This document shows positions 10,248 to 12,907 of a DNA stretch of 22,408 bases, piece after piece. Source of the DNA: Candidatus Baldrarchaeum yapensis (GTDB taxonomy: Archaea; Asgardarchaeota; Baldrarchaeia; Baldrarchaeales; Baldrarchaeaceae); NCBI GenBank assembly GCA_016840465.1, contig JAEOSH010000037.1:1-22408 (forward strand). Reading direction: 5' to 3'. The notes under the pieces are model-generated. The model did no database searches and was not told the origin of the DNA. It saw only the letters and a list, made by a program, of their open reading frames with translations. Made by a program: the position numbers and the translations under genes. Position 1 is the first letter of the stretch, and each line of letters starts with the position of its first letter.

Positions 10248-10562
10248 GCGAATTTTTTATATGTTTTCGTCTGCAACAAATTTCAAAGAAAAATCTATTC
10301 TTTTAACTCGTTAAGTAAATGAGTGGTTTCGTAGGCCCGATCTCACAATGCCATTTACTTGAGCAAATTATTTTTTGATGTCGTTGATGTCATTATCCTT
10401 CTTTTTCGATCACACTTTGCATCGCAGTTTTTGGTGCGGTTTATAGATGTGATAATGCAAGGATGGTAAGGTAACGAGTCATTTGTACGTTGGATGTCAG
10501 AACCTCAGATGATATTCGTTCATTGAGCCAGTTTCTGCAGGTCTTTAAGAGGATGTTTCCTT

Positions 10563-11780
10563 TCACATTTCTAGGATGTCAGTCCAGTCCCACACCTCAA
10601 TATTTTCGGGAGTTCTCTTCAATACATCCTTTGTCGGGACAATCAGCAGTCTTCTCGCGTCAAATTTGGAAAGTTTCTCCTCTATACTTCTGACCTCTCT
10701 TTCGTCAACTTCTCTCTTCCATTTTATTTCCGCTACAATTTTTATCCTCTTATGTTCTCTCAGGGCTATATCTACTTCGAGTTCCGGCCTTGCTATCTTT
10801 ACTGGTTGCATACCGAAGACTCTGGCTAGGAGGTCTTCGAAGAACCATTCCATATACCTAGGTAGTCGTTCTGCAAACATCGACTCTATCCTTTTTTCAT
10901 CCACATTCGCCTCAAAGAATCCGTACTTCTCGTTAAGATAGTATGCAAAGTCGGTGATTGGAGAGAGATGACGGTACTGGAAGACCCTTCGTCTCCTACC
11001 CTCGACGGGAGTTGCCCTTATCAGTCCCATCTGAACGAGGTTTCGCAGGTACTGGGAAATCATTCCTGGGCTGTCCTTCTCGATTAGTCCTCTCGAGAAG
11101 AGGTAGTTTGAAATTTCTGACGAGTACACTTTCCCACTAGCGATTGCGCTTAAGATTGCCGAGTATCTTGTGGTCAGTTGTATATCCTCCTCGGTGAACA
11201 CCTCTCCTACTAGATATGGCACGTAGACCCTCAGCTCCTCTCTAATGTGGAGTGCCACTTTCTCCTTGTATCTCTCGATCTTCGGGGCGAGCTAAGGTTC
11301 CCTCGCTATACACGCAACCTCCAGTAGTTTTCTTCCCTTCAAACCGAGTTCTCGTGCGAAGAGTATGGCATCCCTCGGATCCACCAGTCCTACTTCTCTT
11401 AGTTCGAAAAGCCCGAAGAGGGGCTCCTGACAAGATTTCTGAAGTAATGCATTGTTGATGTTATTCAGGATCATCCTGCCTCTTCCACTAAGTGCCTGGA
11501 GGGTTGAGAACACAGGTTCGTCGAGCCTGTGAAACTCGTCAATCACTATCCTCTCCTCTCTTATGAGAAGTGGGAGAATCTTTTGGAACTCTCTTTGCGA
11601 GAACTCTTCGCCCCGGTCTACCGGTGGTTGCTGATATACGGCAGGAGAAAGACAGGGAAAACCTTCTACGTCAGGGAAAAGGGAGAATATGACAGATACC
11701 TCATAGTGACCAGGAATAAAACGCTGATAGATATAGTCGCTCAGGACGTTTTCGAGTTCCCTCCTTGGTATAATGGCCAT
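10563..11780 (-). pseudogene. Archaeal ATPase (P-loop + wHTH + DUF234/PD-(D/E)xK-like C-terminus), disrupted
   Basis: Walker B IVIDEFH is on the - strand but Walker A GRRKTGKT is on the + strand. An in-frame TAG at 11292-11294 links the two ORFs in one frame. A wHTH (ISQYLRNLVQMGLI) and C-terminal EVDIAL...AEIKW follow. Confidence 0.85.
11622..11735 (+). other. Inverted 114-bp segment inside the ATPase pseudogene (limits 11620-11737 given 2-bp microhomology)
   Basis: The + strand encodes RWLLIYGRRKTGKTFYVREKGEYDRYLIVTRNKTLIDI. Reverse-complementing it restores an in-frame N-terminus at both junctions. Confidence 0.9.
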
Positions 11781-11850
11781 TATTAAATGATCGTTATAAT
11801 ATATGAACTTCGCTCGCCCCTTCTCTTGAGGTGCGCTTTGGCAGGAAAGA

Positions 11851-11863
11851 GGAAATTTATATC
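11851..11863 (+). promoter_or_regulatory. Putative BRE-TATA for the 11895 gene
   Basis: GGAAA-TTTATATC lies about 30 nt upstream of ATG 11895. Confidence 0.45.
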
Positions 11864-11894
11864 TCGGGATTGGGCATGTATTCCGGTGCGGGTG

Positions 11895-12590
11895 ATGGCG
11901 ACCTTAAGAGTTGAGGGTCCTCTGTCCGTAGGGGAGGAAGTGGTGCTCAGGTTCTATCCGGCGGTTAAGAAGCTTCTGGAGGAAATAAGGAGTAGAGGGT
12001 GGGAGTACCACATTGAGGGTGTCGTGGGGATTGCCAGAGTTGCGCTGGATCCCAGGAAACTACGCTTCAGGCTGAGGCATATCAGTCCTAGGAAGGAAAA
12101 GGGGGAGAAGGAGAGTACATATGCTATTGAGGCGGAACTTGGGAAGGCGCCTCCAGAGATTCTCGAGGTCGAGAATATTAAACGATTCGAGGTGGCAGTA
12201 TCCACGGAGCACGCAGAAAGGTGCGTGAGGGTGGATCCGCTCAACAGGGTCATCACATATGTAGAGGACGTTCTCTGGGAGGGCTTTAGGCTCGGGGTGG
12301 AAAGAACTCCGCAGAGGCTTTCGGAGGCAAGAGAGGTATACGAGGTCGTGAAATTCTTCCTAAATAACGGTTATAAGTTTGAAGACAAATACGTAGCGAG
12401 GCGTTACGAGGACCTCGTTAATCTCTTTGAGAAGAAGTACACGTTCACGTTAACACTTGATCTGACCATGGAGAGGGAAGATGTTGTTCCTAGGTGGGAC
12501 AGGTTACGAGAGGAATTGTTGGAGTTTTTCCGCAAGAGAGGAATATCTATGAGGCTGAAGGAGTTACTTGATGATAGAGATGCTCAATAG
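11895..12590 (+). CDS. Hypothetical protein (about 231 aa)
   Basis: Long ORF with E/K/R-rich composition. GGGTG precedes ATG 11895 and a TATA lies upstream. The first 36 aa of the ORF-track version look non-coding. Confidence 0.75.
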   Translation: MATLRVEGPLSVGEEVVLRFYPAVKKLLEEIRSRGWEYHIEGVVGIARVALDPRKLRFRLRHISPRKEKGEKESTYAIEAELGKAPPEILEVENIKRFEVAVSTEHAERCVRVDPLNRVITYVEDVLWEGFRLGVERTPQRLSEAREVYEVVKFFLNNGYKFEDKYVARRYEDLVNLFEKKYTFTLTLDLTMEREDVVPRWDRLREELLEFFRKRGISMRLKELLDDRDAQ

Positions 12591-12907
12591 GGGCGATAAG
12601 AGAATATCGTTGTAGGGATTTGTGCAAGATGATGACTGAAACGGGCACATGTTCATGTCGTAGTATTTTATCGTGATTTTCTGCAATTAGGGGGTTCCAA
12701 GAATTCTTTAAAATTGTGAAGTCGGTCTTTGCCTAATGGATCGGTGGCGTCAGGGTTTGTGGGACGCGTTTAAGAGGAGTGGGCGTAATGAGGTATACTG
12801 GTTGGAGAGCATTTTATGTGTCCGGCCGTGGTGTAAATTTCGGAACTTTTATGATAGAGGCGGTGTGGTAGATATTCGATTTTGTCAGTTAGGTAGGAGT
12901 GAGAAAG

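Follow-up and report, generated by a model that had tools for sequence, protein, structure and literature searches.

Short-range template-switch mutations are described by the quasi-palindrome model of Ripley and by the four-point model (PMC5453318). Within the latter, events of the 3-1-2-4 class make an inverted repeat around an inverted spacer, and this class has been observed (Loytynoja and Goldman, 2017; PMC5453318). For yeast, the stated template-switch signature combines homogenisation of the inverted-repeat arms with inversion of the spacer (PMC8604942). A second described kind of inversion inside genes is the intragenic inverton, which is known from bacteria and from one archaeal case (Chanin et al., PMC10028968). 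Here, we describe a micro-inversion in a 22,408-nt stretch of DNA from Candidatus Baldrarchaeum yapensis (contig JAEOSH010000037.1, positions 1 to 22,408 of the forward strand; hereafter the window). It probably arose as a single event that reached fixation in one lineage of an archaeal population in the wild, and the gene concerned, which codes for a P-loop ATPase, is truncated or split by a TAG stop.

The affected gene is encoded on the - strand and consists of two ORFs that share one frame and are split by a single in-frame TAG (11292-11294): an N-terminal ORF of 162 codons at 11295-11780 (11292-11780 including the stop) and a C-terminal ORF of 231 aa at 10563-11258, which comprises a winged helix and a PD-(D/E)xK-like region (DUF234/Mrr_cat-like). 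In the window, the N-terminal ORF contains the Walker B motif (IVIDEF, 11532-11549, - strand) and lacks Walker A, as the initial annotation had correctly read from the sequence. The P-loop codons GRRKTGKT, a motif identical in the orthologs, were located at 11640-11663 on the + strand, which is the wrong strand for this gene. There, as likewise recognised before, they are part of a spurious + strand ORF (11529-11786), which is made by the flip and carries the Walker A sense codons between stretches antisense to the gene. A divergent ORF of 250-267 aa (11787-12590, + strand) abuts the start of the ATPase gene; it has no Pfam match and is kept in all strain contigs. The neighbours of the locus are feoA-feoA-feoB, a DtxR-type repressor, an unknown 250-aa gene, a class-V aminotransferase, an amino-acid kinase and a polysaccharide synthase.

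A homology search together with a cluster look-up recovered a natural counterpart of the un-inverted state. The 162-aa protein P0004 has exactly the sequence predicted for the N-terminal half without the inversion and likewise stops at the TAG; it is encoded on a 93.8-kb ENA contig (L014/L022). The 162-aa ORF of the inverted state was absent from the protein collection. In the following, the un-inverted allele is called U and the inverted allele, as found in the window, I.

Comparison of the window with the un-inverted public contigs L014, L020 and L022 and with the contig layout of run X2 placed the inverted core at 11621-11733 (113 nt). It is bordered by two 3-bp arms: CTA on the left (11618-11620, + strand), which is common to both alleles, and TAG on the right (11734-11736, + strand), where every inverted allele has G at position 11736 and every un-inverted allele has A, the latter reading TAA. 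On the + strand, U is thus CTA, the reverse complement of the core and TAA, with imperfect arms, and I is CTA, the core and TAG, with perfect ones. Read along the gene strand, U is GAGCGA-TTA, core, TAG-ACCGG, and I is GAGCGA-CTA, flipped core, TAG-ACCGG. Because CTA and TAG border the core, a flip of 11618-11736 equals a flip of 11621-11733. No base was gained or lost, and I is U with the core flipped plus one change at 11736. This A/G difference is a synonymous Asp change on the - strand, GAT in U and GAC in I, and in all contigs covering the position it is fully linked to orientation.

We further aligned the Logan contigs of four runs to positions 10500-12600. In a 149-nt contig of X2, positions 11619-11736 in reverse complement are followed by one unaligned base (position 119) and then by 11737-11766 in forward direction, and a 1540-nt contig of the same run starts with 27 bases corresponding to 11707-11733 forward and continues from 11620 downwards. 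The X2 layouts match the predicted flip of 11618-11736, and neither the window nor a restoration by flipping 11622-11735. A 60-nt X2 contig (depth 9) is collinear with the window over 11736|11737.

These natural alleles required a revision of the inversion as it was initially drawn. Its boundaries had been set at 11622-11735, with junctions sharing only 2 bp (AC/GT); U alleles from L014/L022, L020/L024 and X2 move them to 11621-11733, and the actual flanks are the 3-bp arms. The GACCGG noted at both junctions of the restored gene turned out to be a by-product of the shifted boundaries. Flipping 11622-11735 does give a continuous open frame, as was stated, but it is one codon out at each junction: its alignment to both orthologs has a 1-codon gap at the 5' junction, and at the 3' junction one codon is inserted. 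The description of the inversion as clean holds for the unchanged length and fails at position 11736, where the window has G and U has A. That the inverted state stays open on the - strand was confirmed, and this is so because the flip is codon-aligned and its 38 sense codons contain no TTA, CTA or TCA. The expectation that automated annotation would hide the event was not borne out, as gene callers split the flipped gene into fragments of 84 or 108 aa plus a 67-aa ORF on the opposite strand.

Gene conversion from a paralog was considered and rejected, since the core is base-for-base equal in U and I, bar one later SNP in some I copies. This additional core SNP is carried by two I contigs, L013 and L016, and indicates that the I lineage has persisted.

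Orthologs of 407-437 aa were found in two genomes of the same phylum (G020, locus L002; G010, locus L003), with about 65% identity over the full length and 70% identity between the C-terminal 231 aa and the closest orthologs. U aligns without gaps to these 65-70% orthologs. The initial annotation had made its reading depend on the restored protein aligning better to homologs than the current one, and the difference is large: over the 41 residues that span the segment, 29-30/41 match the orthologs in U and 0-1/41 in the I allele of the window. Moreover, the Walker A segment is in gene orientation in the G020 ortholog, in the G010 ortholog and in a paralog on contig C60. By the orthologs, U is shown to be the ancestral state and I the derived one. 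The paralog on C60 of the same genome is intact, has the GRRKTGKT loop and is 33% identical to the G020 ortholog and 37% to the C-terminal ORF of the window. The closest orthologs (L002:964-2187 and L003:1471-2784) belong to another family of the phylum and have a different gene neighbourhood; in the four genomes of the same order that were searched, the best relatives reached 35%. This patchy distribution suggests horizontal transfer of the ATPase gene.

The domain order of the gene is a P-loop domain (AAA_14/AAA_22-like), a winged helix (weak HTH_5 and MCM_C matches) and a PD-(D/E)xK-like region with weak Mrr_cat and DUF234 matches, which cover nearly the full profiles and stay below the cut-offs. 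The un-inverted N-terminal half, P0004, passes Pfam AAA_14 with 27.5 versus 27 bits, and this is the sole profile that reached its gathering score. The inverted N-terminal ORF had no Pfam match, and the current ORFs had neither an NCBIfam match nor a useful PDB sequence match. The gene shares its domain order with archaeal P-loop ATPases that carry a C-terminal DUF234/PD-(D/E)xK region (PF01637 + PF03008), as well as the P-loop GxxxxGKT, a DE Walker B, the winged helix and the nuclease-like D...ExK. In contrast to these proteins, neither profile reaches its gathering score here: DUF234 (PF03008) scored 13.5-14.7 bits versus 22.5, and ATPase_2 (PF01637) gave no match for this gene and 17.9 versus 33.2 for the paralog. 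The earlier label ATPase/DUF234 is therefore fair as a resemblance but not as Pfam membership.

The TAG at 11292-11294, absent from the initial annotation, cuts the gene in every allele and was found in 14/14 sequences examined, in both orientations. The orthologs have TGG at this site (Trp in EPWLAP), and the window reads EP-stop-LAP, which identifies the TAG as a TGG-to-TAG nonsense mutation; a plain mutation of this kind would be the simple reading. Pyrrolysine was rejected as an alternative, as the orthologs have Trp and no tRNA with the anticodon CUA was detected by aragorn, the latter being a weak check on 32 tRNAs from a draft genome. The C-terminal ORF starts with a GTG 33 nt past the TAG, with AAGGAG ahead of it, and the gene may survive as two pieces instead of being dead. 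Since the TAG is present in every allele, the gene was no longer whole when the flip struck: it had been truncated, or at best divided into one half with the P-loop and another with the wHTH/nuclease-like part. The flip was presumably neutral in a gene already disabled. At the far end of the gene, a strain SNP at 10563 (another lies at 10529) changes the stop TGA (10563-10565) to TGT and gives a C-terminal ORF of 237 instead of 231 aa. These two forms are represented by P0006/P0008 and P0007/P0009, and the SNP was found with both flip orientations.

Both alleles are present in public metagenomes from vents, sediment and seawater, which were obtained in several studies between 2018 and 2025. 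The allele census and the linkage analysis were drawn from contigs. Both junctions of I are contained in the window, in L013 (ENA), in L015 (Logan, the same 17,067-nt contig as X1) and in L023 (JGI); one junction of I is contained in L016, X6, X7 and a minor contig of X2 (record 4, depth 9). Both junctions of U are present in L014/L022 and in the major contigs of X2 (records 2 and 3), and L020/L024 (JGI/NCBI) has an intact 3' junction of U and starts inside the 5' junction, 4 nt before the junction itself. Altogether, the I allele occurs in at least five samples besides the window, and run X2 holds both alleles at about 23x U and 9x I, as calculated from contig depths. An exact search with a 36-nt core word gave 0 matches in the JGI metagenome_contigs and genome_contigs collections, which is uninformative, as near-identical records were possibly omitted there. 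X6 record 10 (179 nt, 148 aligned) is known by length only and was not counted as a second allele in X6; its length fits a path of right flank, I junction, core, U junction and right flank (30+118+1+30).

Several public contigs break at this site. L017, L018 and L019/L025 end exactly at TAGACCGG, and L016 and L020 start at the other junction. The three contigs that stop exactly at the junction stem from at least two assemblies, and five contigs in all (L016-L020, from NCBI, ENA and JGI assemblies) have their first base exactly at, or within 4 nt of, one of the two junctions. De Bruijn graph assembly breaks at a junction when both orientations share a sample. Some samples assemble as a single orientation across 17-94 kb.

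As the window comes from a metagenome draft of 100 contigs, a misassembly or a chimera formed during amplification or library preparation in its source data had to be considered. The same two junctions are found in independent contigs from several runs and studies, dated 2018-2025 and assembled as Logan, MEGAHIT (k141), SPAdes (NODE) and JGI contigs. This recurrence across independent samples and studies excludes an assembly or amplification artefact for all practical purposes, and we regard such an origin as extremely improbable.

We consider one inter-strand template switch, made during replication, the most likely mechanism. The sequence of I can be written as U up to CTA, followed by the reverse complement of the U stretch that begins with the left arm and includes the TA of the right arm, followed by U from 11737, and this accounts for all differences. 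In such an event, the nascent + strand would leave its template within CTA, using a 2-bp TA microhomology, take the opposite strand as template, run backwards along it across the 113-nt spacer and then the left arm, which would give TAG, and return to its own template at 11737. In four-point notation, this would be a 3-1-2-4 event (mirror 1-3-4-2), by which the spacer would be inverted and the imperfect arms made perfect. The change from U to I is wholly templated by one switch; the reverse change is not, because I offers no source for the A at 11736. The replication mechanism and the switch points are deduced from the junctions and should be taken as probable; the points themselves are weakly determined, because the microhomology is 2 bp and the return requires extension from a terminal G:T mispair.

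A nearly identical outcome would result from two double-strand breaks and reversed re-ligation by microhomology-mediated end joining at TA/TA, together with an independent mutation at 11736. The conserved length and the TA at both junctions are in agreement with this route, but two-break rejoining usually adds or loses bases. In addition, it requires a second, unrelated mutation at exactly 11736, and one that perfects the complementarity of the arms. The region has about 28 variable sites in 12.7 kb (approximately 0.2%), and at this SNP density an unrelated change at precisely that base is improbable. We therefore consider breakage and rejoining unlikely and favour the template switch, which explains the flip and the substitution together.

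The third possibility is an enzyme-driven, reversible intragenic inverton, by which phase variation would turn the ATPase's P-loop on and off. Some of the observations are those expected from such a switch: X2 contains both orientations, the three contigs ending and the two starting at junctions suggest mixtures, the flip is in frame, the published invertons provide a precedent, and the genome encodes five resolvase-domain proteins (genes on C96, C55 and C23) and one tyrosine recombinase (on C7) elsewhere. Orientation is also unlinked to the flanking SNPs, as both orientations are found with either variant at 10563/10529, which makes four combinations. To produce this pattern, there must have been recombination, the metagenome contigs must be mosaic, or the event must have recurred; as such contigs can be mosaics, we set the pattern aside as evidence of recurrence.

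The junctions themselves speak against a switch. Their arms are only 3 bp long, and the best inverted repeat nearby is a 7-nt pair (11585-91/11754-60) that is asymmetric, at 27 and 18 nt from the junctions; none longer than 7 nt and none in a symmetrical position was found there, in agreement with the initial annotation on the lack of long inverted repeats. U is not an exact flip of I, as 11736 differs in every allele seen, and no U-orientation junction with C was present among these alleles. In the gene tables, the 6 kb to each side of the locus contain no recombinase gene, and the premature TAG is there in both orientations. Finally, the metagenomes sampled contain further SNPs at strain level, for which coexisting strains can account for the mixtures, and single orientations over 17-94 kb in some of them do not fit a toggling segment. 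An inverton is accordingly a very unlikely explanation. The same low probability applies to the broader idea that, in living populations, the flip recurs or can be reversed, as a 3-bp-arm intragenic switch that toggles the P-loop in the N-terminal half of a naturally split ATPase. If true, it would explain why both orientations are found together in several samples and show no linkage to flanking SNPs. The evidence agrees with the order in which the initial annotation had ranked the explanations, with the template switch ahead of an amplification chimera and a reversible switch in last place. Apart from this locus, contig C96 carries three resolvase-domain (serine recombinase) matches inside a 9-kb stretch (G000:C96:26410-35184), which may mark a mobile-element cluster.

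Taken together, we judge this to be an ordinary template-switch micro-inversion, a known kind of mutation, that is unusually well documented. It does not reveal a new biological system, and its value is practical and illustrative: it represents a well-resolved natural example from an archaeon, with ancestral and derived alleles in wild populations and a junction base that gives the direction. On the practical side, such flips fragment metagenome assemblies exactly at their junctions, and gene callers turn the flipped gene into pieces plus an antisense ORF. Annotations should label the locus a pseudogene or a split gene and record both of its lesions.

Compared with the intragenic invertons of Chanin et al. 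(PMC10028968), the locus has in common that an in-frame inversion lies wholly within a gene and recodes the protein, and that both orientations have been sequenced. The published invertons are thought to be recombinase-mediated, reversible and located between detectable inverted repeats, whereas here we find 3-bp arms, inexact flips, no nearby recombinase and a gene cut by a stop. The resemblance to short-range template-switch mutations is much closer, as these also read as flank, adjacent reverse complement and flank, one event accounts for both the flip and the neighbouring substitution, and imperfect arms become perfect. Unlike in those cases, the spacer is long (113 nt), the arms are very short (3 bp) and the host is an archaeon. 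A further difference is that both alleles coexist in natural samples, and the polarity of the change is observed instead of reconstructed.
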